The notes below the pieces were generated by a model. The model was not told the DNA's origin, did no database searches, and was given only the letters and a program-made list of their open reading frames with translations. This document shows positions 17,725 through 52,746 of a stretch of 64,000 nucleotides of DNA, one piece after another; position 1 is the stretch's first letter, and the number at the start of each line of letters is the position of its first letter. Position numbers and translations under genes: made by a program. The stretch is from assembly GCF_001677475.2 (NCBI RefSeq), contig NZ_CP015229.1; one strand, written 5' to 3'. The stretch is from Escherichia coli. GTDB lineage: Bacteria; Pseudomonadota; Gammaproteobacteria; Enterobacterales; Enterobacteriaceae.

Positions 17725-17727
17725 AGA

Positions 17728-19890: not shown

Positions 19891-21062
19891 ATGGACAACT
19901 GCAATACAACCGTGGCCTGACTGAACCCCGCCTGCCGCGTTCGGCGCTGGCGGTACGCGTTACCGCTGTGATGCTGCTCTGTTTTCTCGGCTGGGCGTGG
20001 TACTTCCAGCTTGATGAAGTCACCACCGGCAGCGGCACGGTAGAACCTTCCGGGCGCGAACAGGTGGTGCAGTCGCTGGAAGGCGGAATTCTGTATCATC
20101 TCGACGTCAAGGTTGGCGATATTGTTGAACAGGGCCAGCCGCTGGCGCAGCTTAACCGCACCAAAACGGAATCCGACGTCCAGGAAGCAATGTCGCGGCT
20201 GTACGCGGCGCTGGCAACCTCGGCGCGGCTGCGGGCGGAAGTGAGTAATAAACCGCTGGTCTTCCCTGACGAACTGAATAAATTCCCCGAACTTATCGAG
20301 TCGGAAACGGCGTTGTACAACACTCGCCGCGATGGGCTGAACAAAGCCACCACCGGGCTGACGCAGGGGATTAGCCTGGTCAACCGCGAACTGGCGATGA
20401 CCCAGCCGCTGGTAAAACAGGGGGCGGCGAGCAGCGTCGAAGTGCTGCGCCTGCAACGCCAGGCCAATGAACTGGAAAACAAACTTAGCGACGTACGTAC
20501 GCAATATTACGTTCAGGCGCGCGAAGAGTTAGCGAAAGCCAATGCGGAAGTGGAAACCCAGCGTTCGGTGATCCGTGGACGGGAAGACTCCCTCACCAGG
20601 CTCAACTTTACTGCGCCAGTTCGTGGCATTGTTCAGGATATTGATGTCACCACAGTTGGCGGCGTCATTGCCCCCGGTGGTAAACTGATGACCATCGTGC
20701 CGCTGGATGAGCAACTGCTGATTGAGGCAAAAATCTCCCCGCGCGATGTGGCGTTTATCCATCCGGGGCAAAAATCGCTGGTGAAAATAACCGCTTACGA
20801 TTACTCCATTTATGGCGGTCTGCCGGGAGAAGTGGCGGTGATTTCACCAGATACCGTGCAGGATGAAGTGCGGCGCGATGTTTATTACTATCGGGTGTAC
20901 ATTCGCACTTTCAGCAACCATCTGGAAAACAAAAGCAAACAGCAGTTTCCGATATTTCCCGGTATGGTGGCGACGGTCGATATCCGCACCGGCAAAAAGA
21001 GCGTGCTGGATTATCTGTTGAAACCCTTTAATAAAGCACAGGAGGCGTTGCGCGAACGATGA
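19887..21062 (+). CDS. Type I secretion membrane fusion protein (HlyD family periplasmic adaptor)
   Basis: 391 aa; N-terminal TM segment, long coiled-coil region, C-terminal beta domain; 4-bp ATGA overlap with the ABC gene stop. Confidence 0.85.
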
Positions 21063-21466
21063 ACATTAGCGATGTAGCAAAAATTACCGGCCTGACCAGC
21101 AAAGCAATCCGCTTCTATGAAGAGAAGGGGCTGGTGACGCCGCCGATGCGCAGCGAAAATGGTTATCGCACCTACACGCAGCAGCATCTCAACGAACTGA
21201 CCTTACTGCGCCAGGCGCGCCAGGTGGGCTTTAACCTGGAAGAGAGCGGCGAACTGGTGAATCTGTTTAACGACCCGCAGCGCCACAGTGCTGATGTAAA
21301 ACGGCGCACGCTGGAGAAGGTGGCGGAGATCGAGCGACATATCGAAGAACTGCAATCCATGCGCAACCAGCTGTTGGCGCTGGCGAATGCCTGCCCTGGC
21401 GATGACAGCGCCGACTGCCCGATTATCGAAAATCTCTCCGGCTGCTGTCATCATCGGGCGGGGTGA
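21059..21466 (+). CDS. cueR: Copper-responsive MerR-family regulator CueR
   Basis: 135 aa; N-terminal MerR HTH ([25 protein letters not shown]) and C-terminal CxxxxxxxxC metal site ([10 protein letters not shown]); matches E. coli CueR as I recall it. ATG overlaps the HlyD-like stop (ATGA). Confidence 0.93.
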
Positions 21467-21469
21467 AAA

Positions 21470-21673
21470 TCAGTTAATCCCCGTTTGCACCGAAAGAATA
21501 TGCTGCAAACTTTCTACCATTATGCGCCCCGATTGAAATAAGCCTTCCTGGATTTCATTGTTAACATTCACAGCGTGAACCAGGGAGGCTAATAACACCA
21601 CTTGCAAGAAGGCAAAAATAAACGCACCGATAATCATAATATGCGTCAGGGGGATTTTCCTTTGCTCCTTCAT
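21470..21673 (-). CDS. Small hydrophobic membrane protein (67 aa), hypothetical
   Basis: One predicted TM helix (IMIIGAFIFAFLQVVLLASLV); start overlaps the upstream lipoprotein gene stop (ATGA); stop lies 3 nt from the convergent cueR stop. Confidence 0.45.
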   Translation of the reverse strand: MKEQRKIPLTHIMIIGAFIFAFLQVVLLASLVHAVNVNNEIQEGLFQSGRIMVESLQHILSVQTGIN

Positions 21674-22092
21674 TTTAAATAACCCACAAACTGACCTTCC
21701 TTCATTAAGGCGACTTTTCCCGTGTGGTGATAAACAATGACGTTATAAAGACCTGACTGATAAACAGTGGCATCTTTATTGTCTTCATCAATTGCACATA
21801 ATGAATCATTGAGATAAGCAAAGTTCTTACTGCTCATTCTAAAGGTCATGCCAAATCCTTTATAAATGGCTTTCTTTGCCGCCTGGGCATGTTGTGCGGC
21901 TTCTGCATTTTTAAATGCCTGCGCCTCGGATGCACTTAAAATAGCCGTCTGACGCTGTTGTTCTGCGAGATAACAGGTGTCATGGCTGACGCCCTGCGCC
22001 TGGCAATCTGCGATGCGGGAAGTGGGTGAACTACAGCCAGCCAGTAATATAACCGCCAGCAGGGAAAACGATTTAATGGAACTATTCATCAT
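21670..22092 (-). CDS. Putative lipoprotein (140 aa), hypothetical
   Basis: Signal peptide with lipobox LLAGC; co-directional with and downstream of the YadA-anchor gene. Confidence 0.6.
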   Translation of the reverse strand: MMNSSIKSFSLLAVILLAGCSSPTSRIADCQAQGVSHDTCYLAEQQRQTAILSASEAQAFKNAEAAQHAQAAKKAIYKGFGMTFRMSSKNFAYLNDSLCAIDEDNKDATVYQSGLYNVIVYHHTGKVALMKEGQFVGYLK

Positions 22093-22177
22093 TGTTAACC
22101 TTAAATAATGTACAAATTAATGAAGAGGTGAAACCCGGCAAGCTTCCTTGCTCTTATTTATATTGAGGATTGGAATA

Positions 22178-23194
22178 TTAGAAAGAATATCCCACGCCGA
22201 CACCCGCGCCGAAATCAGATTGCGTATCCGCAGAGACACCGGCTTTAATCACGGTATGCGTTCCGGCATTAAAAGATGTTCCTACAGACACCGCAGATTC
22301 ACCGTTGAACGTTCCCGCTCCCGCTGACACCATCATCAAGTCACCGGTTTTCACCTGTGGTTGTGAGGCGATAGCGATGGCAGATGCAGTTCCCGCATTG
22401 GCTTCTTTACGATTGTCCTCAACTTCGTTTTTCAGAGAATCGAAATGGTTATTGAGCGTGTTAATTTGTTGGCTGTTATCTGCGACCCGTTTTTGCGTGT
22501 TGGTTAACTGTTGCTGCGTTTGTGCGGAATCTTGTCTCAGACTTTCAATTTGCTCATGTGCCTGGACAGACTTCTGCGCCAGACTTTGCATTTGTTTATC
22601 GTATTGAGCCCTTTCTTTTTGCTGTTGTGCTGCCACATCGGTTGTCAGTGCATTCATTTTCTGCCCTTGTTCCGTGGTAGTGCGCTGAATAGCCTCATTT
22701 TGAGCCGCCAGTCTGGCATTAATCATCTCCTGATAATGCGCAGTATTTTGCGTATCTCCAGTCGCGGCGAGCGTTTTTTGTGTGGCTACGATCTGCGCCT
22801 GTTGCTCTGTAATTTGCGTTTGCTGGGCATCAGTTACCGCAGACTGTCGGGCGTTGATCATGCTCTGATAACGGGCTGGTGTCTGTGCATCACCTGTAGC
22901 GGCAACGGTTTTTTGTCCTGCGTCAGGATCTGTCTGGACAGTGGGAGTCTGAGTGGTATCAGGTGTTTCAGAAGGGATGTAGTGATGTTCAGTCAAATAG
23001 GTATACGCAGCGGGGCTGTTGTCTGTGCGTTCTAAAAAGCGGGTAATCTTCTGCTCAATCTCCGATTGCGACATGCCAGAGTTAATGGCTGAAAGCTCTG
23101 TTGCCGCCGCTTCAATGGTATCACCAGCTAAAACAACAGGGCTGGATGTTGCTGAAATTATGAGTGCCAGTAAAGCTACGTTTACAGTTTTCAT
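22178..23194 (-). CDS. Short trimeric-autotransporter-like protein with YadA-type C-terminal membrane anchor and Q-rich coiled-coil stalk, no recognisable head domain
   Basis: 338 aa; N-terminal signal peptide; last ~75 aa (AGTASAIAIASQPQVKTGDLMMVSAGAGTFNGESAVSVGTSFNAGTHTVIKAGVSADTQSDFGAGVGVGYSF) fit the YadA anchor pattern (G/A-rich entry helix, four beta strands, terminal aromatic); internal ~45-aa duplication in the stalk. Confidence 0.7.
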   Translation of the reverse strand: MKTVNVALLALIISATSSPVVLAGDTIEAAATELSAINSGMSQSEIEQKITRFLERTDNSPAAYTYLTEHHYIPSETPDTTQTPTVQTDPDAGQKTVAATGDAQTPARYQSMINARQSAVTDAQQTQITEQQAQIVATQKTLAATGDTQNTAHYQEMINARLAAQNEAIQRTTTEQGQKMNALTTDVAAQQQKERAQYDKQMQSLAQKSVQAHEQIESLRQDSAQTQQQLTNTQKRVADNSQQINTLNNHFDSLKNEVEDNRKEANAGTASAIAIASQPQVKTGDLMMVSAGAGTFNGESAVSVGTSFNAGTHTVIKAGVSADTQSDFGAGVGVGYSF

Positions 23195-23357
23195 TCATTT
23201 TCTCTTGTTCAAAATAAGTCGCACTAATGTTTCTATAAGAAACAAATAATATTATTTTAAGAAATAAACTACGTTGCAATTTAATCGAAATTTACGCCGC
23301 CATTTGTGTGATGTAAAGCGCATTTTTGTCTGGTGTAAGCGTAAACACCATCAATAA

Positions 23358-23382
23358 GAAACAAAAATGGTTTCTTATATAA
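23358..23382. promoter_or_regulatory. Perfect inverted repeat ATAAGAAAC-N7-GTTTCTTAT in the divergent promoter region; candidate operator
   Basis: Read directly from sequence; a partial copy TAAGAAACAAA occurs near 23236. Confidence 0.35.
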
Positions 23383-23560
23383 ATAAAAAAGGAAATCATT
23401 TCGTGCTCTTTCAATGTAAAAAAGAGTAAAGGCTTGTTTTGATAAGCGAAATAAATTCTGTTTCTGGACTAAACGTGAACCGGTTCCTGATGTGTGTTAA
23501 AATGCGTTTCTTTGATAAATCTCAATTTTTAAGAGGTTTACGCCAGGCAGGAAAATTTAA

Positions 23561-23923
23561 ATGAATGAATTTGAGAAGATTTTTAATGAAATGAATCTGG
23601 ACCGGGCATTGCTACCGATCCTTTTTCGTTCGAACCGGTCAACAGTGTGGAAATATTTAAGTGGCGATAGTACGGCTCCTGCCTCAGCTATGTCACTGAT
23701 TATGCTGTTGCAGTTAATCCAGAAACGAAACCCCGATCTGTTAGCCGAATGGTTAACGCTTTCTGATTTCACCATTCCGCCAGAAGTTTACCTGGACCAG
23801 CCTGATTACTGGAAAGGGTGGGTGTATACGCAACACAAGGTCAATAAAAACGTCCTGGAATATCTAAAAAAACATTATCCGGATGAAGACCAAAAAAACA
23901 TGAATAAAGGTAGTGACGAGTAA
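23561..23923 (+). CDS. Hypothetical protein (120 aa), possible small DNA-binding regulator
   Basis: ORF divergent from the YadA-anchor gene across a 366-bp AT-rich spacer; no confident family assignment from sequence alone. Confidence 0.4.
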   Translation: MNEFEKIFNEMNLDRALLPILFRSNRSTVWKYLSGDSTAPASAMSLIMLLQLIQKRNPDLLAEWLTLSDFTIPPEVYLDQPDYWKGWVYTQHKVNKNVLEYLKKHYPDEDQKNMNKGSDE

Positions 23924-23949
23924 TTTGCCAATGCCAGTTAATATAGCGG

Positions 23950-24107
<158 letters not shown>

Positions 24108-24115
<8 letters not shown>

Positions 24116-32537: not shown

Positions 32538-32554
32538 TGACAGGCGTTAGATTG

Positions 32555-32660
<106 letters not shown>

Positions 32661-32685
32661 GTGCATTTTGGCAATAAATATGAAA

Positions 32686-32741
32686 CCAACTGTCATGTCG
32701 GTTTTTTTAAAGGCCGAAGGTGGTAAACCTTCGGCCTTAGC
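32686..32741. terminator. Terminator module of repeat copy 1: stem CCAAC/GTCGG plus T-tract and adjacent GGCCGAAGG...CCTTCGGCC hairpin, immediately 3' of the minus-strand peptide ORF
   Basis: Palindromes read from sequence; the first hairpin is a one-mismatch copy of the terminator at 33162-33190. Confidence 0.5.
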
Positions 32742-32754
32742 TACGTTTCCTCAG

Positions 32755-32838
32755 TTATTCAATAAACTGACGGATCAGTTCCAGCAGCGCGATTAGCGCC
32801 TTAAGAACGATGAGAACTTTATCGAGAAAAGTTTTCAT
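32755..32838 (-). CDS. Candidate type I toxin: 27-aa hydrophobic single-helix peptide MKTFLDKVLIVLKALIALLELIRQFIE (DinQ/TisB-like)
   Basis: Hand-translated from the minus strand; not in the supplied ORF track. SD AAGGGAG 6 nt upstream lies inside the perfect palindrome CTCCCTTAAGGGAG (32845-32858); an in-frame upstream ATG at 32908-32910 would give 51 aa. Resembles E. coli DinQ (ALIALLELIR core) as I recall that sequence. Confidence 0.6.
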   Translation of the reverse strand: MKTFLDKVLIVLKALIALLELIRQFIE

Positions 32839-33063
32839 CCGTTGCTCCCTTAAGGGAGAAAGACAATCACAGCTTACCCTTACGTTGCCTGTAACTATGA
32901 TTTTCTTCATGTGCTAGATGAGGACTGCCTCTCTCCAAATTAGAGCACCAGAATCAGCACCACCTGTATCCTGACCAGGACTTAAAAGTACTTTTCCGCA
33001 CTGCGGTAATCCCTTGAGGCAGTATCACTACTAGCGTCGGGATTGTATCGCCAGCATAGCTGT

Positions 33064-33092
33064 TTGAATATGTAGGCATCCTGACTTATAAT
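33064..33092 (+). promoter_or_regulatory. Sigma70-type promoter TTGAAT-17 bp-TATAAT driving the candidate antisense sRNA
   Basis: -35 TTGAAT at 33064-33069, -10 TATAAT at 33087-33092, predicted start near 33099. Confidence 0.55.
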
Positions 33093-33098
33093 TCACTT

Positions 33099-33190
33099 GC
33101 TAGATGAGGACTGTTTCATTTCTGCCCGGAACCACCAAGTCTTGGGCGGAAAAAAAATAAAAAAACCGACTGTCATGTCGGTTTTTTTAT
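33099..33190 (+). ncRNA. Candidate ~90-nt antitoxin sRNA (AgrB-like), trans-complementary to the toxin mRNA leader
   Basis: Bounded by the promoter above and the intrinsic terminator AAAAAAACCGACTGTCATGTCGGTTTTTTT (33162-33190). Its 5' end GCTAGATGAGGACTG (33099-33113) is an exact direct repeat of 32913-32927, so the RNA is complementary to the minus-strand toxin leader. Confidence 0.5.
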
Positions 33191-33251
33191 ATCTGTATTC
33201 TGGTGCAACCATTCTGTTCTCACGACAATCGCCGTTTCAGAATACCGCCCA

Positions 33252-37035: not shown

Positions 37036-38817
37036 ATGGCAAAAATGAGAGCCGTTGACGCGGCAATGTATGTGCTGGAGAAAGAAGGTATCACCACCGC
37101 CTTCGGCGTTCCGGGAGCTGCAATCAATCCGTTCTACTCAGCGATGCGTAAGCACGGCGGTATTCGTCACATTCTGGCGCGTCATGTGGAAGGTGCTTCG
37201 CACATGGCGGAAGGTTATACCCGCGCAACGGCAGGGAATATCGGCGTATGTCTGGGAACCTCGGGACCAGCAGGCACTGACATGATCACCGCGCTCTATT
37301 CCGCTTCTGCTGATTCCATTCCTATTCTGTGCATTACCGGCCAGGCTCCGCGCGCCCGTCTGCATAAAGAAGATTTCCAGGCCGTTGATATTGAAGCAAT
37401 TGCTAAACCGGTCAGCAAAATGGCGGTTACAGTACGTGAAGCGGCGCTGGTGCCTCGTGTGCTGCAACAGGCATTTCACCTGATGCGTTCTGGTCGTCCG
37501 GGTCCGGTACTGGTGGATTTACCGTTCGACGTACAGGTTGCGGAAATCGAGTTTGATCCTGACATGTACGAACCGCTGCCGGTCTACAAACCTGCTGCCA
37601 GCCGTATGCAGATCGAAAAAGCTGTAGAAATGTTAATCCAGGCCGAACGTCCGGTGATTGTTGCCGGGGGCGGGGTAATCAATGCTGACGCAGCTGCACT
37701 GTTACAACAGTTTGCTGAACTGACCAGCGTTCCGGTGATCCCAACGCTGATGGGCTGGGGCTGTATCCCGGACGATCATGAACTGATGGCCGGGATGGTG
37801 GGTCTGCAAACCGCGCATCGTTACGGTAACGCAACGTTGCTGGCGTCCGACATGGTGTTTGGTATCGGTAACCGTTTTGCGAACCGTCATACCGGTTCGG
37901 TAGAGAAATACACCGAAGGGCGCAAAATCGTTCATATCGATATTGAGCCGACGCAAATTGGCCGCGTGCTGTGTCCGGATCTCGGCATTGTTTCTGATGC
38001 TAAAGCGGCGCTGACGCTGCTGGTTGAAGTGGCGCAGGAGATGCAAAAAGCGGGTCGTCTGCCGTGTCGTAAAGAATGGGTCGCCGACTGCCAGCAGCGC
38101 AAACGCACTTTGCTGCGCAAAACCCACTTCGACAATGTGCCGGTGAAACCGCAGCGCGTGTATGAAGAGATGAACAAAGCCTTTGGTCGCGATGTTTGTT
38201 ATGTCACCACCATTGGTCTGTCACAAATCGCTGCGGCACAAATGCTGCATGTCTTTAAAGACCGCCACTGGATCAACTGTGGGCAGGCAGGCCCGCTGGG
38301 CTGGACCATTCCGGCGGCGCTGGGCGTGTGTGCCGCTGATCCAGAGCGCAATGTGGTGGCGATTTCCGGTGACTTCGACTTCCAGTTCCTGATTGAAGAA
38401 TTAGCTGTTGGCGCACAGTTCAACATTCCGTACATCCATGTACTGGTCAATAACGCCTATCTGGGTCTGATTCGCCAGTCGCAGCGCGCGTTTGATATGG
38501 ATTACTGCGTACAGCTCGCGTTCGAAAATATTAACTCCAGCGAAGTGAACGGTTACGGCGTCGACCACGTAAAAGTAGCGGAAGGTTTAGGTTGTAAAGC
38601 GATTCGCGTTTTCAAACCGGAAGATATAGCACCAGCCTTTGAACAGGCGAAAGCCTTAATGGCGCAATATCGGGTACCGGTAGTCGTGGAAGTTATTCTC
38701 GAGCGTGTGACCAATATTTCGATGGGCAGCGAACTGGATAATGTAATGGAATTTGAAGATATCGCCGATAACGCAGTGGATGCACCGACTGAAACCTGCT
38801 TCATGCACTATGAATAG
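37036..38817 (+). CDS. gcl: Glyoxylate carboligase (tartronate-semialdehyde synthase), ThDP-dependent
   Basis: 593 aa from [13 protein letters not shown] with SD GAGGTAGGA upstream; the track ORF has a 30-codon 5' extension that I reject. Confidence 0.92.
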
Positions 38818-38829
38818 GGGAGATAAATA

Positions 38830-39606
38830 ATGTTACGTTTCTCTGCTAATTTATCAATGTTATTTGGTGAATATGATTTTCTCGCCCGTTTTGAGAAAGC
38901 TGCGCAGTGTGGTTTTCGCGGCGTTGAATTTATGTTTCCTTATGACTACGACATTGAAGAATTAAAACAGGTGCTGGCGAGTAATAAACTCGAGCATACG
39001 CTGCATAATTTACCTGCGGGTGACTGGGCGGCGGGCGAGCGGGGTATTGCCTGTATTCCTGGCCGTGAAGAAGAGTTTCGTGATGGCGTAGCAGCGGCGA
39101 TTCGTTATGCTCGTGCGCTGGGTAATAAAAAAATCAACTGTCTGGTCGGTAAAACGCCGGCGGGTTTCAGCAGTGAACTGATTCACGCAACGCTTGTGGA
39201 AAACCTGCGTTATGCCGCGAATATGTTGATGAAAGAAGATATTTTATTACTGATTGAACCTATCAACCATTTCGATATTCCTGGTTTCCATCTCACCGGA
39301 ACTCAGCAGGCGCTGAAACTGATTGATGATGTAGGCTGCTGCAATTTGAAAATTCAGTATGACATTTATCATATGCAGCGGATGGAAGGTGAATTAACCA
39401 ACACCATGATCCAATGGGTCGATAAAATTGGTCACCTGCAAATCGCCGATAATCCACATCGCGGCGAACCGGGAACCGGAGAAATTAATTACGATTATCT
39501 CTTTAAGGTAATTGAACATTCTGACTACAACGGTTGGGTTGGCTGTGAATATAAACCCAGAACCACCACGGAAGCCGGTTTAGGCTGGATGAAACCGTAC
39601 CGTTAA
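38830..39606 (+). CDS. hyi: Hydroxypyruvate isomerase
   Basis: 258 aa; TIM-barrel sugar-isomerase-like. Confidence 0.9.
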   Translation: MLRFSANLSMLFGEYDFLARFEKAAQCGFRGVEFMFPYDYDIEELKQVLASNKLEHTLHNLPAGDWAAGERGIACIPGREEEFRDGVAAAIRYARALGNKKINCLVGKTPAGFSSELIHATLVENLRYAANMLMKEDILLLIEPINHFDIPGFHLTGTQQALKLIDDVGCCNLKIQYDIYHMQRMEGELTNTMIQWVDKIGHLQIADNPHRGEPGTGEINYDYLFKVIEHSDYNGWVGCEYKPRTTTEAGLGWMKPYR

Positions 39607-39705
39607 AACGTAACGCTGTTCAGACAATGCTTTTTTAGGCCGCTACGTCGGCAGGGGATCGTGTTGTCTGAATTCAGGAAAAGCGACATTTAAAAGAGGC
39701 TAAAT

Positions 39706-40584
39706 ATGAAACTGGGATTTATTGGCTTAGGCATTATGGGTACTCCGATGGCCATTAATCTGGCGCGCGCCGGTCATCAACTGCATGTCACAACTATTGG
39801 TTCGGTTGCTGATGAATTACTGTCACTCGGTGCCGTCAGTGTTGAAACTGCGCGCCAGGTAACAGAAGCGTCAGACATCATTTTTATTATGGTGCCGGAT
39901 ACGCCACAGGTTGAAGAAGTTCTGTTTGGTGAAAATGGTTGTACCAAAGCCTCGCTGAAGGGCAAAACCATTGTTGATATGAGCTCCATTTCCCCGATTG
40001 AAACTAAACGTTTCGCTCGTCAGGTGAATGAACTAGGTGGCGATTATCTCGATGCGCCAGTCTCCGGCGGTGAAATCGGCGCGCGTGAAGGGACGTTGTC
40101 GATTATGGTTGGCGGTGACGAAGCGGTATTTGAACGTGTTAAACCGCTGTTTGAATTGCTCGGTAAAAATATCACCCTCGTGGGCGGTAACGGCGACGGT
40201 CAAACCTGCAAAGTGGCAAATCAGATTATCGTGGCGCTCAATATTGAAGCGGTTTCTGAAGCATTGTTGTTTGCTTCAAAAGCCGGTGCGGACCCGGTAC
40301 GTGTGCGCCAGGCGCTGATGGGCGGCTTTGCTTCCTCACGTATTCTGGAAGTTCACGGTGAGCGCATGATTAAACGCACCTTTAATCCAGGTTTCAAAAT
40401 TGCGCTGCACCAGAAAGATCTCAACCTGGCACTGCAAAGTGCGAAAGCACTGGCGCTGAACCTGCCAAACACTGCGACCTGCCAGGAGTTATTTAATACC
40501 TGTGCGGCAAACGGTGGCAGCCAGTTGGATCACTCTGCGTTAGTGCAGGCGCTGGAATTAATGGCTAACCATAAACTGGCCTGA
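39706..40584 (+). CDS. glxR: Tartronate semialdehyde reductase (2-hydroxy-3-oxopropionate reductase)
   Basis: 292 aa; N-terminal NAD-binding GxGxxG (GLGIMGTPMA). Confidence 0.9.
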   Translation: MKLGFIGLGIMGTPMAINLARAGHQLHVTTIGSVADELLSLGAVSVETARQVTEASDIIFIMVPDTPQVEEVLFGENGCTKASLKGKTIVDMSSISPIETKRFARQVNELGGDYLDAPVSGGEIGAREGTLSIMVGGDEAVFERVKPLFELLGKNITLVGGNGDGQTCKVANQIIVALNIEAVSEALLFASKAGADPVRVRQALMGGFASSRILEVHGERMIKRTFNPGFKIALHQKDLNLALQSAKALALNLPNTATCQELFNTCAANGGSQLDHSALVQALELMANHKLA

Positions 40585-43678: not shown

Positions 43679-44986
43679 GTGTTTATGTTCAATTTTGCAG
43701 TCAGCCGCGAAAGCCTGTTATCAGGATTTCAGTGGTTTTTCTTTATTTTTTGCAACACGGTTGTGGTTCCTCCTACGCTACTTTCTGCTTTTCAGTTGCC
43801 GCAAAGTAGCCTGCTTACGCTCACGCAATATGCTTTTCTTGCTACCGCACTGGCCTGCTTCGCTCAGGTGTTTTGCGGTCATCGTCGCGCTATTATGGAA
43901 GGGCCAGGTGGCCTGTGGTGGGGAACCATCCTTACTATCACCCTTGGCGAAGCATCGCGCGGGACACCGATCAACGATATCGCTACCAGTCTGGCGGTGG
44001 GGATTGCACTCTCCGGCGTGCTGACGATGTTGATTGGTTTTAGCGGATTAGGCCATCGCCTGGCACGGTTATTTACGCCGTCGGTGATGGTCCTGTTTAT
44101 GTTGATGCTGGGCGCGCAGCTGACCACTATCTTTTTCAAAGGTATGCTCGGGCTGCCGTTTGGCATAGCCGACCCAAATTTTAAAATTCAGTTACCGCCG
44201 TTCGCGCTCTCGGTGGCGGTGATGTGCCTGGTACTGGGGATGATTATCTTCCTGCCGCAACGTTTTGCCCGTTATGGCCTGCTGGTCGGCACCATAACCG
44301 GCTGGTTGTTGTGGTACTTTTGCTTTCCTGCTTCGCACTCGCTCTCCGGTGAGTTGCACTGGCAGTGGTTCCCGCTCGGCAGTGGCGGTGCGTTGTCGCC
44401 GGGAATTATTCTGACGGCGGTGATTACAGGTCTGGTAAATATCAGCAATACCTACGGTGCGATTCGGGGCACGGATGTTTTTTATCCGCAGCAGGGCGCG
44501 GGGAATACGCGTTATCGTCGTAGCTTTGTGGCGACCGGATTTATGACGCTGATAACCGTACCGCTGGCGGTAATTCCATTTTCACCGTTTGTTTCATCCA
44601 TTGGTTTATTAACCCAGACTGGCGATTACACGCGACGTTCGTTTATTTATGGCAGCGTTATTTGCCTGCTGGTTGCGCTGGTTCCGGCACTCACGCGACT
44701 ATTTTGCAGTATCCCTTTACCAGTGAGTAGCGCGGTCATGCTGGTTTCTTATCTGCCTTTACTCTTTTCCGCGCTGGTGTTTAGCCAGCAAATAACCTTT
44801 ACCGCTCGCAATATTTATCGACTCGCATTGCCGTTATTTGTCGGCATATTTTTAATGGCATTACCGCCTGTGTATCTGCAAGACCTTCCATTAACGCTTC
44901 GTCCTCTGCTCAGTAACGGCTTACTGGTCGGAATTTTACTGGCTGTTCTTATGGATAATCTTATTCCGTGGGAACGCATCGAATAA
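43679..44986 (+). CDS. ybbY: Putative purine/xanthine permease (NCS2 family) YbbY
   Basis: 435 aa polytopic membrane protein; an alternative ATG lies 6 nt downstream. Confidence 0.8.
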   Translation: MFMFNFAVSRESLLSGFQWFFFIFCNTVVVPPTLLSAFQLPQSSLLTLTQYAFLATALACFAQVFCGHRRAIMEGPGGLWWGTILTITLGEASRGTPINDIATSLAVGIALSGVLTMLIGFSGLGHRLARLFTPSVMVLFMLMLGAQLTTIFFKGMLGLPFGIADPNFKIQLPPFALSVAVMCLVLGMIIFLPQRFARYGLLVGTITGWLLWYFCFPASHSLSGELHWQWFPLGSGGALSPGIILTAVITGLVNISNTYGAIRGTDVFYPQQGAGNTRYRRSFVATGFMTLITVPLAVIPFSPFVSSIGLLTQTGDYTRRSFIYGSVICLLVALVPALTRLFCSIPLPVSSAVMLVSYLPLLFSALVFSQQITFTARNIYRLALPLFVGIFLMALPPVYLQDLPLTLRPLLSNGLLVGILLAVLMDNLIPWERIE

Positions 44987-45007
44987 TTTGTTGAAAAAGG
45001 ATTGATA

Positions 45008-46153
45008 ATGAAGATTGTCATTGCGCCAGACTCTTTTAAAGAGAGCTTAAGTGCAGAAAAATGTTGTCAGGCAATTAAAGCCGGGTTTTCGACCCTCTTT
45101 CCCGATGCGCACTATATCTGTTTGCCGATAGCGGATGGCGGCGAAGGGACGGTGGATGCGATGGTCGCCGCGACGGGCGGCAACATCGTGAAGCTTGAAG
45201 TCTGCGGGCCGATGGGCGAAAAAGTGAATGCTTTTTATGGCCTTACCGGCGACGGGAAAACAGCGGTGATTGAGATGGCGGCAGCAAGTGGCCTGATGCT
45301 GGTCGCGCCTGAAAAGCGTAATCCGTTGCTGGCCTCCAGTTTTGGTACGGGGGAGTTAATTCGTCATGCGCTGGATAACGGCATTCGCCATATTATTCTC
45401 GGCATTGGCGGTAGTGCGACGGTCGACGGCGGTATGGGCATGGCGCAGGCGCTTGGTGTGCGTTTCCTTGATGCCGACGGTCAGGTGCTGGTGGCTAACG
45501 GCGGCAATTTAGCGCGCGTGGCAAGCATTGAGATGGATGAATGCGATCCGCGTCTGGCGAACTGCCATATTGAAGTAGCATGTGACGTTGATAACCCGCT
45601 GGTAGGGGCACGCGGCGCGGCGGCGGTGTTTGGCCCGCAAAAAGGGGCAACGCCGGAGATGGTCGAAGAACTGGAACAGGGGCTGCAAAATTACGCCCGT
45701 GTTTTACAACAGCAAACTGAAATGAATGTCTGCCAGATGGCGGGCGGCGGCGCGGCGGGCGGTATGGGTATTGCGGCGGCGGTATTCCTCAATGCGGATA
45801 TTAAACCGGGCATTGAGATTGTGTTGAATGCGGTCAATCTTGCGCAGGCGGTGCAGGGCGCAGCACTGGTGATCACCGGGGAAGGGCGCATCGACTCGCA
45901 AACGGCAGGCGGTAAAGCTCCGCTGGGCGTTGCGTCGGTGGCGAAGCAGTTTAATGTACCGGTGATTGGGATTGCTGGCGTATTGGGTGATGGCGTGGAA
46001 GTGGTGCACCAGTACGGCATTGATGCGGTATTCAGCATTTTGCCACGTCTGGCACCTTTAACCGAAGTGCTCGCCAGCGGTGAAACCAATCTCTTCAACA
46101 GTGCGCGAAATATTGCCTGCGCCATTAAAATAGGTCAGGGAATTAAAAACTGA
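45008..46153 (+). CDS. glxK: Glycerate kinase II
   Basis: 381 aa from [16 protein letters not shown]; the track ORF begins 2 codons upstream. Confidence 0.9.
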
Positions 46154-46199
46154 CTCTTACCTTTAAAGTGGATGCGATTTATTTCGTATAAGAGCGCAG

Positions 46200-46310
46200 T
46201 GCTCATGCCGGATGCGGCATGAGTACTATATCCTTCCTGAAAATCGCGCAAATTCTATATATTGTAGAGATCATGTAGGCCTGATAAGCGAAGCGCATCA
46301 GGCAATGTTA
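46200..46310. repeat. REP-like palindromic elements between glxK and allE
   Basis: Palindrome GCTCATGCCGGATGCGGCATGAG and REP unit GTAGGCCTGATAAGCGAAGCGCATCAGGCA. Confidence 0.6.
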
Positions 46311-46311
46311 C

Positions 46312-46345
46312 AAAAAAAGCCACGGTATAAACCGTGGCAAAATCC
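46312..46345 (-). terminator. Intrinsic terminator downstream of allE
   Basis: Minus-strand hairpin GCCACGG-TTTATA-CCGTGGC followed by T7. Confidence 0.6.
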
Positions 46346-46380
46346 AACATAGCTAAAAATAATCAGGCGAGTGGTATGAC

Positions 46381-47166
46381 TTAAATCTCTACGTCGCGGT
46401 TGCAATCTTTCGAGTAAATATAGCTGAACGCTTCACCACGCCCTACGCCATAACCAGCCTGTAAAGAATAAGCGCCCATAAAGATGTAATCGCCTTTTTT
46501 CACCGGAATCCAGTTATTGTCAAGGTTATAAACCCCCTGACCGGAAAGAATATAGGCACCGTGTTCCTGAACATGTGTTTCGATATAACCGTGGCTGGCA
46601 CCTGGCGCAAAAGAGAGGATATGCATGTTCATATCAAAACCTAACTCTTTGGGCAGAAAATCCAGCAGGATCACATCATCCATACCTTCATAATGAATGC
46701 GTTCCAGTTCGCTGGCATTGCCAGAAACCAGCCACGGCGCATGACCTTCTACCGGAACATAGCGACGCTTATATAAAAAGATTTGGCTGTCTTCGGCCTG
46801 GGCGTTAACAAAAGTCATTAAGGAGCCTGGCGGGCAATAAAGATAGCCACCTTCACTTAAGGTAAATGTTTTCCCTTCGGCTTTGGCAGTGATATTTCCA
46901 GAGATCACATACAGGAACGTTTCAATGCCTTCGCCACCGAAGCCCTGTTGGTTGCCGCCGTTTTGATGCAGTGTGACCAGATAATCAACAAAAGAGGCAC
47001 CCAGCTTTGGCGTGGAGAGGATTGTCGCGTCACAATTTTCAAAGCCCGGAATAATATTTTTTACCAGACCGTCTGGTGTTAACAGTGCGAAATTACCGTG
47101 TTTAACAATCGCACGGTTAGCCAGTAAATCATCGCGGTAACCGGTGACGTTATTTAAATATCCCAT
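46381..47166 (-). CDS. allE: (S)-ureidoglycine aminohydrolase (cupin)
   Basis: 261 aa; synteny. Confidence 0.9.
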   Translation of the reverse strand: MGYLNNVTGYRDDLLANRAIVKHGNFALLTPDGLVKNIIPGFENCDATILSTPKLGASFVDYLVTLHQNGGNQQGFGGEGIETFLYVISGNITAKAEGKTFTLSEGGYLYCPPGSLMTFVNAQAEDSQIFLYKRRYVPVEGHAPWLVSGNASELERIHYEGMDDVILLDFLPKELGFDMNMHILSFAPGASHGYIETHVQEHGAYILSGQGVYNLDNNWIPVKKGDYIFMGAYSLQAGYGVGRGEAFSYIYSKDCNRDVEI

Positions 47167-47176
47167 TTATGACTCC

Positions 47177-48412
47177 TTATTTCTGCCAGGCAAGTTGATA
47201 AAGCATGAGTGCCAACGTTTTGACCCCTTCGGCAAGGTCGGTAATATTGGTGCGTTCCGCCGGGTTATGGCTGATCCCGTTGATGCTGGGGATAAAAATC
47301 ATACAGGTTGGTACGCGAGGCGCGAAAATTTGCGCGTCGTGCCCGGCACCACTGTGCATCACCCGGTAATTCAGTTTTTCGCTTTCACACAATTCTGTCA
47401 GGGTGGCGACCAGGTCCTTATTCATCGGCACGGGTTCTTCGTCCATCCATAAATCAATATCAATACCAATGTCCATTTCATCGCAAATCGCCCGCATGTC
47501 GTTTTCTAACTGCTGGGTGAAATCGCGCAGCACGGCAGCGTCGGTATGACGACAATCAATGGTGAACGTGGTTTTACCTGGTACCACATTCACCGTATTC
47601 GGACGCGGCTCCACCTTGCCAAAGGTAAGCACCAGCGGGTCGCCCATCTTTTTCGCTTTTTCGATCGACTGATGGCAAATGCGACTGAAAGCGTAAACCG
47701 TATCACGACGATAACCCATCGGCGTGGTGCCTGCATGGTTTGATTCGCCGTTCAGCGTCACCGTATAGCGACGTTGCCCGACAATTGCATTCACCACGCC
47801 AATTGACTGCCCGTTACTTTCCAGCACACAGCCCTGTTCGATATGCAGTTCGACAAAGGCTTTAATATCCTGACGCGGAGTTAGCGGGGCGTCCGGCAGA
47901 GTAAATCCGCAAGCCTTCATCGCATCGACAAACCTATTTCCTTTGGCATCACAGATATTCCGTACGTCGTCAGGATTCGCCAGCCCAAAGATATTTTTAC
48001 TGCCCCAGAAGACATACGGGAAGCGGCTGCCTTCTTCTTCTGCCATCGCCACCACTTCGACCGTACGTAGCGGCGCGCCGTATTGCGTTTTCAGCCAGTC
48101 AATTGCCAGCCAGGCCGCCAGCGCGCCGAATTGCCCGTCGAGGTTACCGCCGTTAACCACGGTATCGATATGCGAACCGCTCAGAACCACTTCCTGTGGA
48201 TATTCGGTGCCATTCAGGCGACCGTATAAATTTCCCACTTCATCGAAATGTGTTTCCAGCCCGCTTGCTGCCATTCTTTTTTTAAATTGCTGTTGGGTTT
48301 CCAGCCATTCCGGCGAATAAAGTAAACGGGTCATCCCACCCGTAGGGTCAGCGCCAAAAGAGGAAAGCCAGGGCAGCGTTTCTTCTATGGCTTGACGGAA
48401 ATGTGTAATCAT
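47177..48412 (-). CDS. allC: Allantoate amidohydrolase (M20 peptidase family)
   Basis: 411 aa from MITHFRQAIEE; the track ORF begins 6 codons upstream. Confidence 0.9.
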   Translation of the reverse strand: MITHFRQAIEETLPWLSSFGADPTGGMTRLLYSPEWLETQQQFKKRMAASGLETHFDEVGNLYGRLNGTEYPQEVVLSGSHIDTVVNGGNLDGQFGALAAWLAIDWLKTQYGAPLRTVEVVAMAEEEGSRFPYVFWGSKNIFGLANPDDVRNICDAKGNRFVDAMKACGFTLPDAPLTPRQDIKAFVELHIEQGCVLESNGQSIGVVNAIVGQRRYTVTLNGESNHAGTTPMGYRRDTVYAFSRICHQSIEKAKKMGDPLVLTFGKVEPRPNTVNVVPGKTTFTIDCRHTDAAVLRDFTQQLENDMRAICDEMDIGIDIDLWMDEEPVPMNKDLVATLTELCESEKLNYRVMHSGAGHDAQIFAPRVPTCMIFIPSINGISHNPAERTNITDLAEGVKTLALMLYQLAWQK

Positions 48413-48433
48413 AAGAAAGTCCTGTCTCAATAA

Positions 48434-49483
48434 TTATTGCGCAAAGGGATTTTTCGTTTCGTATGACGTGTTATAAAGCGCGTCGGAAATTAAATACTGG
48501 TAAATATCATCAACAATTTCGATGCCTTCGACGGCGGCTTTGCGTTGTTTAATATCCTGATCCTGTCCGGGATAATAAACCTGATTAAAACCGGGCGCGG
48601 GGGTAATGGCATTTAATTCGCGCATGGTCTGGCTAAGATGTTGACGGAATAATTCGCTGGAGGAGAAAAAGTTCGGATTAATAACTATATGTAATTGCCC
48701 CAAATTACGCCCGGCGTGTAAATCGTCATACATCGAACTAACCTGTCGCCCGAACGGTAAGCCGAGTAAGACGCCTGAGAGGACGTCAATCATCATCATC
48801 AGGCCATACCCTTTCGGCCCAGCGGCGGGGAGCAGAGCATGTACCGCGAACGGATCGGTTGTTGGTGCACCGTTTTTATCGACCGCCCAGGTATCCGGGA
48901 TAGACATATTACGCGAGCGGGCGTCGAGCACTTTTCCCCATGCCTGTACGGTAGTCGCCATATCAAAGGTAAGGATCTCGTTGCCTTCTCCCGGCGCGGC
49001 AAAGGCCAGTGGGTTAGTACCGTAGTAAATTTCCGCGCCGCCAAACGGCACCACCATTGGATCGGACTGGCACATCGAAATACCAATTAATCCGGCGCGG
49101 GCTGCCTGCTGCACAAAATAAGAGATTGCGCCGCTGTGACCCATCCGGCTGATACCGACCACCGCAACGCCATTTTGCTGGGCGGTTTTGATGGCATGTT
49201 CCATACCCATTTTCGCCGCGACCTGTCCGGCGGCATTGTCGGCATGTAAAATTGCCGAGCACGGCCCGGTTTCCTCAAGACGAAACTCCGGTTCGCGGTT
49301 GGTGCCGCCTTTTGAGATGCGTTCCGCGTAGTATTCCACGCGCACCGCGCCATGAGAGTGGATCCCTCTGGCATCGGCGTAAACCAATACTTCAGCCACG
49401 GTTGCAGCGTGCTCACGTTTTAACCCAGCCTGGTAGAGTTTATTCTCGATTAGCTGGTGGAGTGTTTCCCGACTGATTTTCAT
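48434..49483 (-). CDS. allD: Ureidoglycolate dehydrogenase
   Basis: 349 aa; synteny. Confidence 0.9.
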   Translation of the reverse strand: MKISRETLHQLIENKLYQAGLKREHAATVAEVLVYADARGIHSHGAVRVEYYAERISKGGTNREPEFRLEETGPCSAILHADNAAGQVAAKMGMEHAIKTAQQNGVAVVGISRMGHSGAISYFVQQAARAGLIGISMCQSDPMVVPFGGAEIYYGTNPLAFAAPGEGNEILTFDMATTVQAWGKVLDARSRNMSIPDTWAVDKNGAPTTDPFAVHALLPAAGPKGYGLMMMIDVLSGVLLGLPFGRQVSSMYDDLHAGRNLGQLHIVINPNFFSSSELFRQHLSQTMRELNAITPAPGFNQVYYPGQDQDIKQRKAAVEGIEIVDDIYQYLISDALYNTSYETKNPFAQ

Positions 49484-49799
49484 CTGTCTTCCTTTTTAAC
49501 GACGGTGTGAAGCATGACTGCAATTAACATACAGGGAAAATATCTGGATTATGTGATCCAGACAGGCAAAAAAATATAGTTAGAATTTATTTGATAATCC
49601 GCTCGCTTTTAACCTGGTTTTTAAAACAACCACGCTTATTAAAAAATAACGCGTAATAGCCTGGCGGTTATTTGAATTCTTTTGTTAATAATCCCTGTGT
49701 GATATTCATCACCTTATTTACTCGTTGTCATCGATACCGTAATCGCCACATTAACACTGCTCGTGCAATTGCCATGGGTGCAATTTTTAAGGAGTTGTT

Positions 49800-51467
49800 A
49801 TGATCCACGCCTTTATTAAAAAAGGGTGTTTTCAGGATTCGGTCAGTTTAATGATTATTTCACGAAAACTCAGCGAATCAGAAAATGTTGATGATGTTTC
49901 CGTAATGATGGGTACGCCCGCCAATAAAGCGTTATTAGATACCACAGGTTTCTGGCATGACGATTTTAATAACGCCACGCCGAACGATATTTGCGTGGCA
50001 ATTCGTAGCGAAGCGGCGGATGCGGGGATCGCGCAGGCGATTATGCAGCAGCTTGAAGAGGCGCTAAAACAACTGGCGCAGGGTTCAGGCAGCAGCCAGG
50101 CGTTGACGCAGGTGCGTCGCTGGGACAGTGCCTGTCAGAAATTACCCGATGCCAATCTGGCGCTGATTTCAGTGGCTGGTGAGTATGCGGCGGAGCTGGC
50201 GAACCAGGCGCTGGATCGTAACCTCAACGTGATGATGTTCTCCGATAACGTTACGCTGGAAGATGAAATCCAACTTAAAACCCGCGCGCGGGAAAAAGGC
50301 TTGCTGGTGATGGGACCAGACTGCGGTACGTCGATGATTGCCGCCACGCCGCTGGCTTTTGCTAACGTGATGCCGGAAGGCAACATTGGCGTCATTGGCG
50401 CTTCCGGTACCGGGATTCAGGAGCTGTGCTCACAGATTGCGCTGGCAGGGGAGGGAATTACTCACGCGATTGGTCTTGGCGGGCGCGACCTCAGCCGTGA
50501 AGTGGGCGGCATCAGTGCGCTAACAGCGCTGGAAATGCTCAGTGCAGACGAGAAAAGCGAAGTGCTGGCATTTGTTTCAAAACCACCTGCCGATGCTGTG
50601 CGTCTGAAAATTGTTAATGCCATGAAAGCAACCGGCAAACCGACGGTGGCGCTGTTTTTAGGTTATACCCCGGCGGTGGCCCGCGACGAGAATGTCTGGT
50701 TTGCCTCCTCGCTGGATGAGGCCGCACGCCTGGCTTGCCTGCTTTCACGCGTCACGGCGCGACGTAACGCAATAGCACCTGTCAGCAGCGGATTTATTTG
50801 CGGTTTGTATACCGGCGGTACGCTGGCTGCCGAAGCGGCGGGATTACTTGCCGGACACCTTGGCGTGGAAGCCGATGATGCCCATCATCACGGCATGATG
50901 CTCGACGCCGATGGTCACCAGATTATTGACCTCGGCGATGATTTCTACACAGTCGGGCGTCCCCATCCGATGATCGACCCAACCTTACGCAACCAGTTAA
51001 TTGCCGATCTCGGCGCTAAACCGTCAGTGCGCGTATTGCTACTTGATGTCGTGATTGGCTTCGGCGCGACCGCCGATCCTGCCGCCTCGCTGGTGAGCGC
51101 CTGGCAAAAAGCCTGTGCCGCGCGTTCAGACAACCAACCGCTGTATGCCATTGCCACGGTGACAGGTACCGAACGTGACCCGCAATGCCGCTCGCAGCAA
51201 ATCGCCACGCTGGAAGATGCGGGGATTGCGGTCGTGAGTTCGCTACCGGAAGCCACCTTGCTGGCGGCAGCGTTAATTCATCCGCTCTCGCCTGCCGCAC
51301 AGCAACACACATCGTCATTACTGGAAAACGTCGCCGTGATTAACATCGGATTACGCAACTTTGCGCTGGAGCTACAAAGCGCCAGCAAACCGGTTGTGCA
51401 TTACCAATGGTCGCCAGTCGCCGGCGGCAATAAAAAACTGGCTCGTTTATTAGAACGTTTGCAATAA
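49800..51467 (+). CDS. fdrA: FdrA (CoA-ligase-like fold; proposed oxamate carbamoyltransferase component)
   Basis: 555 aa; synteny. Confidence 0.85.
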   Translation: MIHAFIKKGCFQDSVSLMIISRKLSESENVDDVSVMMGTPANKALLDTTGFWHDDFNNATPNDICVAIRSEAADAGIAQAIMQQLEEALKQLAQGSGSSQALTQVRRWDSACQKLPDANLALISVAGEYAAELANQALDRNLNVMMFSDNVTLEDEIQLKTRAREKGLLVMGPDCGTSMIAATPLAFANVMPEGNIGVIGASGTGIQELCSQIALAGEGITHAIGLGGRDLSREVGGISALTALEMLSADEKSEVLAFVSKPPADAVRLKIVNAMKATGKPTVALFLGYTPAVARDENVWFASSLDEAARLACLLSRVTARRNAIAPVSSGFICGLYTGGTLAAEAAGLLAGHLGVEADDAHHHGMMLDADGHQIIDLGDDFYTVGRPHPMIDPTLRNQLIADLGAKPSVRVLLLDVVIGFGATADPAASLVSAWQKACAARSDNQPLYAIATVTGTERDPQCRSQQIATLEDAGIAVVSSLPEATLLAAALIHPLSPAAQQHTSSLLENVAVINIGLRNFALELQSASKPVVHYQWSPVAGGNKKLARLLERLQ

Positions 51468-51476
51468 GGGGTTCCC

Positions 51477-52736
51477 ATGTTTACATCAGTGGCGCAAGCC
51501 AATGCTGCGGTTATCGAACAAATTCGTCGCGCTCGTCCACACTGGCTGGATGTGCAACCGGCTTCTTCACTTATCAGCGAACTAAACGAGGGCAAAACAC
51601 TGCTTCACGCCGGGCCGCCAATGCGCTGGCAGGAGATGACCGGACCCATGAAAGGGGCGTGCGTGGGCGCATGTCTGTTTGAAGGCTGGGCGAAAGATGA
51701 AGCGCAGGCGCTGGCAATACTGGAGCTGGGGGAAGTGAACTTCATTCCTTGTCACCATGTGAATGCCGTCGGGCCAATGGGCGGCATTACTTCTGCCAGT
51801 ATGCCGATGCTGGTGGTCGAGAACGTGACCGACGGCAACCGGGCGTACTGCAACCTCAATGAAGGTATCGGCAAAGTGATGCGTTTTGGCGCTTACGGCG
51901 AAGATGTCCTGACTCGCCATCGCTGGATGCGCGATGTGTTAATGCCAGTATTAAGTGCGGCGCTGGGGCGCATGGAGCGCGGTATCGATCTCACCGCGAT
52001 GATGGCGCAGGGCATTACGATGGGCGATGAGTTCCATCAACGCAATATTGCTTCCTCAGCATTGTTAATGTGTGCGCTGGCCCCACAAATTGCCCGACTC
52101 GATCATGATAAACAGCACATCGCCGAAGTGATGGATTTCCTCAGCGTGACCGATCAGTTCTTCCTCAACCTCGCGATGGCTTACTGCAAGGCGGCGATGG
52201 ATGCTGGCGCGATGATCCGCGCAGGCAGCATCGTTACGGCTATGACCCGCAACGGCAATATGTTCGGGATTCGGGTAAGCGGGCTGGGTGAACGCTGGTT
52301 TACTGCGCCTGTAAACACTCCGCAAGGTCTGTTTTTCACCGGCTTCTCGCAGGAGCAGGCGAACCCGGATATGGGCGATAGCGCGATTACCGAAACCTTT
52401 GGTATTGGCGGAGCCGCAATGATCGCAGCGCCTGGCGTAACGCGCTTTGTCGGTGCGGGTGGCATGGAAGCGGCCAGAGCGGTATCTGAAGAGATGGCGG
52501 AAATTTACCTTGAACGCAATATGCAGTTGCAGATCCCAAGCTGGGATTTTCAGGGCGCGTGTCTGGGACTGGACATTCGTCGCGTGGTAGAAACCGGCAT
52601 TACGCCACTCATCAATACCGGTATCGCCCATAAAGAGGCGGGGATCGGGCAGATTGGCGCAGGCACTGTGCGGGCACCGCTGGCGTGTTTTGAACAGGCG
52701 CTGGAAGCACTGGCTGAAAGCATGGGGATTGGTTGA
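51477..52736 (+). CDS. ylbE: DUF1116 protein YlbE, intact
   Basis: Uninterrupted 419-aa ORF. Confidence 0.85.
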
Positions 52737-52746
52737 GGAACGTGCA

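Follow-up and report, generated by a model that had tools for sequence, protein, structure and literature searches.

An intact allG (ylbE) gene in the allantoin region of an Escherichia coli genome and the probable origin of the K-12 ylbE pseudogene annotation

The window analyzed here, a 64,000-nucleotide stretch of E. coli DNA, carries ylbE at 51477..52736 on the plus strand as an uninterrupted reading frame that opens with ATG, encodes 419 amino acids, and contains no stop codon other than the terminal one, as seen in the ORF listing and its translation. This agrees with an initial annotation of the same DNA, in which the gene was described as intact and its product as 419 residues long. 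The start codon lies 9 nt beyond the fdrA stop and is preceded, 7 nt upstream, by a Shine-Dalgarno-like AAGGGG. The encoded protein belongs to the AllG/YlbE family (Pfam PF06545, formerly DUF1116), the profile of which it matches over positions 1-215 of 215 with E = 7.7e-97 and a score of 323.5 bits, against a Pfam gathering cut-off of 27. Because of this match, and because only 2 of the 26 codons changed relative to K-12 alter the amino acid, the frame is far from a chance one. Antisense ORFs within ylbE, such as the 230-aa frame at 52065..52757 on the minus strand, were considered as genes and rejected on the grounds of the family match and the synonymous bias of the substitutions in the sense frame.

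The gene lies within a run of four adjacent, co-oriented genes, allF, allG, allH, and allK (fdrA, ylbE, ylbF, and ybcF in the older nomenclature), downstream of the divergent allECD operon (Table 1). All four are full length, stop-free, and gaplessly collinear with K-12, which bears out the further statement in the initial annotation that the fdrA-ylbE-ylbF-ybcF cluster is complete. At the protein level fdrA is 98.4% and ylbF 97.8% identical to the K-12 counterpart, both without gaps, and ybcF is 99.7% identical. The spacing is tight throughout, with 10 nt between the allG stop and the ylbF ATG, a GAGGA Shine-Dalgarno sequence upstream of ylbF, and a 4-nt overlap between the allH stop and the allK start; the automatic ORF call for ylbF reaches an upstream TTG at 52654, and the ATG equivalent to that of K-12 is at 52747. 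In tblastn searches the products of allE, allC, and allD are 98.1-98.9% identical to the K-12 proteins, gapless and stop-free, and the same full-length, stop-free state relative to the K-12 proteins is seen for allS, allA, allR, gcl, hyi, glxR, allW, allB, ybbY, and glxK. In K-12 the allF operon promoter depends on AllS and ArcA, which switch it on when allantoin is present under anaerobic conditions (PMC12535856); the intergenic region in which it is predicted to lie in the window aligns with that of MG1655 without gaps (Table 1).

Table 1. Features of the allF-allG-allH-allK region, in window coordinates
Feature	Coordinates	Strand	Description
allE-allC-allD operon	46381..49483	-	ureidoglycine aminohydrolase, allantoate amidohydrolase, ureidoglycolate dehydrogenase; full-length tblastn matches
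allD-allF intergenic region	49484..49799		predicted allF operon promoter; gapless, 309/316 identical to MG1655
fdrA = allF	49800..51467	+	555 aa; succinyl-CoA-synthetase-alpha-like subunit; Pfam CoA_binding and Ligase_CoA; NCBIfam NF004760 full length
ylbE = allG	51477..52736	+	AllG subunit of oxamic transcarbamylase (oxamate carbamoyltransferase); PF06545, MG1655 b4572 identity, PDB 3clq
ORF nt 114	51590	+	G in window and MG1655.3, A in W3110 record; the other, silent change in the old K-12 record
G5 homopolymer	51728..51732	+	ORF nt 252-256; site of the obsolete K-12 'frameshift'; G4 in W3110 and old MG1655 records
ylbF = allH	52747..53562	+	271 aa; third subunit; Pfam PF11392 AllH
ybcF = allK	53559..54452	+	297 aa; catabolic carbamate kinase; NCBIfam NF006926, E = 2.9e-187

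The initial annotation also described ylbE as annotated in K-12 as a frameshifted pseudogene, so that the intact gene would distinguish the window from that strain, and it proposed an alignment with the K-12 region. When this alignment was made, the MG1655 frame proved to be uninterrupted as well, and the implied contrast did not hold. The current MG1655 RefSeq record, NC_000913.3 (hereafter MG1655.3), lists ylbE (b4572, YP_009029994.1) as an intact CDS of 1260 bp at 548357..549616. The two genes align without a gap and differ at 26 nucleotides (97.9% identity), which fall into 24 synonymous and 2 non-synonymous codon changes, and the proteins, each of 419 residues, are identical at 417 positions (99.5%), the K-12 to window changes being Q84L and R199C. 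The window gene is thus a gapless, full-length orthologue of the experimentally characterized AllG of MG1655 (UniProt P77129; AllFGH, EC 2.1.3.5), which shares its length and its place in an operon of the order allF-allG-allH-allK downstream of allECD. The differences come down to L84 for Q, C199 for R, and the silent changes, with no structural difference between the genes.

What this operon does is known from K-12 MG1655, in which Kim and colleagues (2024) showed that fdrA, ylbE, and ylbF, renamed allF, allG, and allH, encode the oxamic transcarbamylase (PMC11326118). In that work the conversion of allantoin to oxamate was abolished or nearly so by each single deletion, and completely by that of allG; a triple mutant provided with all three genes returned to the wild-type oxamate level, whereas the pairs allFG and allGH gave 7-16%; and with the MG1655 proteins the reaction oxalurate + Pi <-> oxamate + carbamoyl phosphate needed all three subunits (PMC11326118). 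A 46-kDa AllG co-purified in active AllFGH and had been expressed from a gene amplified out of MG1655 genomic DNA (PMC11326118), which itself speaks for a full-length allG in MG1655. Since the current MG1655 record has the same frame and a functional full-length AllG is made by MG1655, an intact ylbE does not set the window apart. Published docking of AllFGH is only suggestive as to how labor is divided among the subunits. The fourth gene, ybcF (allK), encodes a catabolic carbamate kinase (PMC9843812). The link of the cluster to anaerobic allantoin/oxamate metabolism that the initial annotation had mentioned is correct and has since been proven (PMC11326118).

[quoted passage not shown] The steps themselves were shown in K-12, and protein identities of 97.8-99.7% suggest that they also take place in the window strain. 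Likewise, an identity of 99.5% leads us to expect that the allele with L84 and C199 is active and catalyzes the oxalurate/oxamate reaction. We consider it very probable that 51477..52736 is an ordinary functional allG, the second gene of the allF-allG-allH-allK operon.

K-12 has a DUF1116 paralogue, YahG (b0321), which shares 45% identity over 415 residues with the window AllG and is encoded in the yahE-yahF-yahG-yahI cluster, where a DUF2877 protein, an FdrA-like protein, and a carbamate-kinase-like protein are likewise encoded. YahG differs, however, in its separate locus, in an N-terminal extension (472 aa in all), and in the order of the surrounding genes, and the window gene is the orthologue of ylbE, not of yahG. 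The fold of the AllG family is known, because a solved DUF1116/AllG-family structure, PDB 3clq, matches residues 2-414 of the window protein with E = 2.4e-111; this entry, deposited as an 'uncharacterized protein' of 421 aa, is without functional annotation and does not show the AllFGH complex.

A K-12 ylbE pseudogene is nonetheless historically accurate as an annotation, for the gene was so described in NC_000913.2 (PMC5460176, PMC3045373) and still is in NC_007779.1, the RefSeq record of the sister strain W3110, which lists it as a 1259-bp 'frameshifted' pseudogene (2582..3840 of the extracted locus). An alignment of the window, MG1655.3, W3110, and DH10B places the old frameshift in the homopolymer at ORF nt 252-256, which reads G5 in the window, MG1655.3, and DH10B and, in this four-way comparison, G4 in the W3110 record only. 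The W3110 record differs from MG1655.3 over ylbE in exactly two respects, namely A for G at nt 114 and one G fewer in this run. The NC_000913.2 and W3110 records have the same gene at the same position as the window, but with G4 and A114, whereas the window has G5 and G114 like MG1655.3; the pseudogene state of the old K-12 records, G4 with a stop at codon 87, is thus absent from the window. When one G is removed in silico from the K-12 ylbE, the frame is closed by a stop at codon 87 and a stretch of 344 codons stays open in another frame, which reproduces the old annotation of ylbE as two fragments.

Resequencing of MG1655 derivatives against NC_000913.2 gave 547,694 A->G and an additional G at 547,831, reported in gene numbering as changes at 'position 114' and 'base 253' (nt 253) of ylbE (PMC5460176, PMC4404585), and these are exactly the two differences between the W3110 record and MG1655.3; the resequenced MG1655 stocks all read G5 (PMC5460176, PMC4404585). 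Both changes were put down to known variations of MG1655 stock cultures in one of these studies (PMC4404585), and EcoGene 3.0 treated both as sequence errors, for correction in U00096.3 (PMC3531124). A 2011 paper took the MG1655 frameshift as real and described the state in NCM3722 as a restored, intact ancestral gene (PMC3045373). In all likelihood the 'frameshifted pseudogene' of K-12 is a miscount of G4 for G5 in the deposited sequence, accompanied by one silent base call, rather than a biological difference.

Among 5,426 complete E. coli genomes, 5,420 have a ylbE match, and in 5,417 of the 5,426 the match covers at least 80% of the gene. The exact 1260-bp span was found in 39 of 40 genomes sampled over the whole match ranking, and ylbE is annotated as an intact CDS in O157:H7 ATCC 35150, in strain 536, and in the most divergent strain sampled. 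When the W3110 allele was searched against the same 5,426 genomes, it was found at 100% identity in four records only, W3110, CIT, LIM, and CAR, and all other K-12 derivatives in the best 60 matches, which include resequenced MG1655 isolates, DH5alpha, DH1, DH10B, C600, J53, NCM3722, AG100, and NEB 5-alpha, have a ylbE of 1260 bp. In CIT, LIM, and CAR (CP026026-28) the gene stands at the coordinates of the W3110 record, 547581..548839, with an offset of 1 bp in LIM, and the CIT chromosome, the only one of the three checked, is 4,639,673 bp long, which differs in length from the old MG1655 reference by no more than a few bases. These coordinates and this chromosome size point to reference-guided assembly as the likely source of the three copies, and the A114/G4 ylbE in the W3110 record and in CP026026-28 is probably an uncorrected or inherited record error. 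Genuine disruption of ylbE does exist but is rare: AR_0085, among very few such cases in complete genomes, has a true deletion by which the 5' 1,230 bp of fdrA are fused with the 3'-terminal 444 bp of ylbE (2774..4439 of the extracted locus).

These data bear on the alternative that the frameshift truly arose by mutation somewhere in the K-12 pedigree, in the lineage of W3110 or in the clone that was first sequenced, and is hence a true polymorphism for which the window has the ancestral state. Two co-occurring differences are unusual for random base-calling errors, and the presence of the identical two 'errors' in the Sanger records of both MG1655 and W3110 is an odd coincidence that the data do not explain; yet the allele is confined to four of 5,420 genomes, three of which carry ylbE at the coordinates of the W3110 record, as would be expected of reference-guided builds. 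The W3110 RefSeq annotation as 'frameshifted', with G4 and A114, and the description of NCM3722 as restoring an intact ancestral gene (PMC3045373) are countered by the G5 reading in resequenced MG1655 stocks (PMC5460176, PMC4404585), by the judgment of curators that the frameshift was an error and its correction (PMC3531124; NC_000913.3), and by the functional requirement for allG in MG1655 (PMC11326118). We therefore regard a real mutation as improbable and, even if it were true for W3110, the state seen in the window would still be the norm of the species. It is just as improbable that the G5 run is a genuine slippage hotspot and that certain K-12 laboratory lineages, W3110 for one, really carry a G4 allele; if this were so, the G4 lineages would be without the oxamate branch of anaerobic allantoin use, and the window would represent the wild-type state. 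Whether the W3110 stock reads G4 has no bearing on the status of ylbE in the window.

With regard to the two substitutions, residue 84 of other E. coli YlbE proteins is either Q or L, and YahG has S there; residue 199 is R in all five other E. coli YlbE proteins used for comparison, none of which has C199, and Q in YahG; a protein identical to the window AllG is present on 21 public E. coli contigs. Because both positions vary, Q84L and R199C are most likely neutral. That the window allele is in frame but functionally altered, the two lineage-specific changes affecting AllG activity or complex assembly, is very unlikely indeed, for although C199 is missing from the five sequences compared and the identity of the ylbE locus to complete RefSeq E. 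coli genomes does not rise above 98.4%, the two sites vary among K-12, other E. coli, and YahG (Q, L, or S at 84; R, C, or Q at 199), the 24:2 ratio of synonymous to non-synonymous changes indicates purifying selection, and the identical protein recurs on those 21 contigs.

Returning to the reading that we favor, a miscounted homopolymer in the old K-12 records, an intact ylbE is with high probability what is normal for E. coli, and for K-12 MG1655 as well. Both the gene and the function of AllG are established, as is the fact that ylbE is intact in K-12 and in nearly every E. coli, and the biological weight of an intact ylbE in the window is accordingly small. The practical caution is of more use: the 'ylbE pseudogene' goes back to NC_000913.2 and lives on in the RefSeq record of W3110 and in some assemblies that are probably reference-guided. 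It has repeatedly been misread as a strain difference or an 'evolved reversion' (e.g. PMC5460176), and flagging it averts a false lead.

The rest of the window differs from K-12 in several places. At its left end a giant ORF (7..17724), of which the 3' 5,900+ codons are present, runs off the window as part of a feature spanning 1..21062. Genes for a type I secretion permease/ATPase (17728..19890) and for an HlyD adaptor (19887..21062) come next, the latter abutting cueR. The counterpart of 1..21062 in E. coli 4621 is annotated as the BapA-related adhesin SiiEA with its secretion system; this adhesin/secretion region is absent from K-12 at the cueR-side position, and 839 of the 5,426 complete genomes contain at least 80% of it, none at an identity above 95.1%. 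The genes cueR and ybbJ are adjacent in K-12, whereas in the window a YadA-family autotransporter adhesin (ORF 22178..23194, minus strand) and small hypothetical genes lie between them (21464..24110). Conversely, the window lacks the rhsD-ybbC-ylbH-ybbD-ylbI-ylbG block that separates ybbP from selU in K-12 (∼7.3 kb) and has only ∼700 bp (32540..33250) in its place.

The closest complete RefSeq E. coli genomes reach at most 98.4% identity over ylbE and at most 97.9% over 14 kb (44000..58000), and the lineage of the window strain is poorly represented, or unrepresented, among complete genomes. A draft assembly, GCA_043014985.2, is identical to the window over 7,260 bp, and public databases hold the exact window proteins on 21-27 contigs, all under the name of E. 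coli. Divergence from K-12 is even along the window, at 94-99.5% identity per kb and mostly 96-99%, which is typical of the distance between phylogroups. The 98.4% ceiling over ylbE had raised Shigella or a cryptic Escherichia clade as a possible source of the window, an assumption that was rejected as unnecessary in view of those contigs and of this even divergence. The hyi protein is 96.5% identical to that of K-12, and over 38001..40000, which covers the 3' end of gcl, hyi, and the start of glxR, nucleotide identity dips to ∼94.4%, compared with 96-99% elsewhere, possibly marking a small recombination patch.
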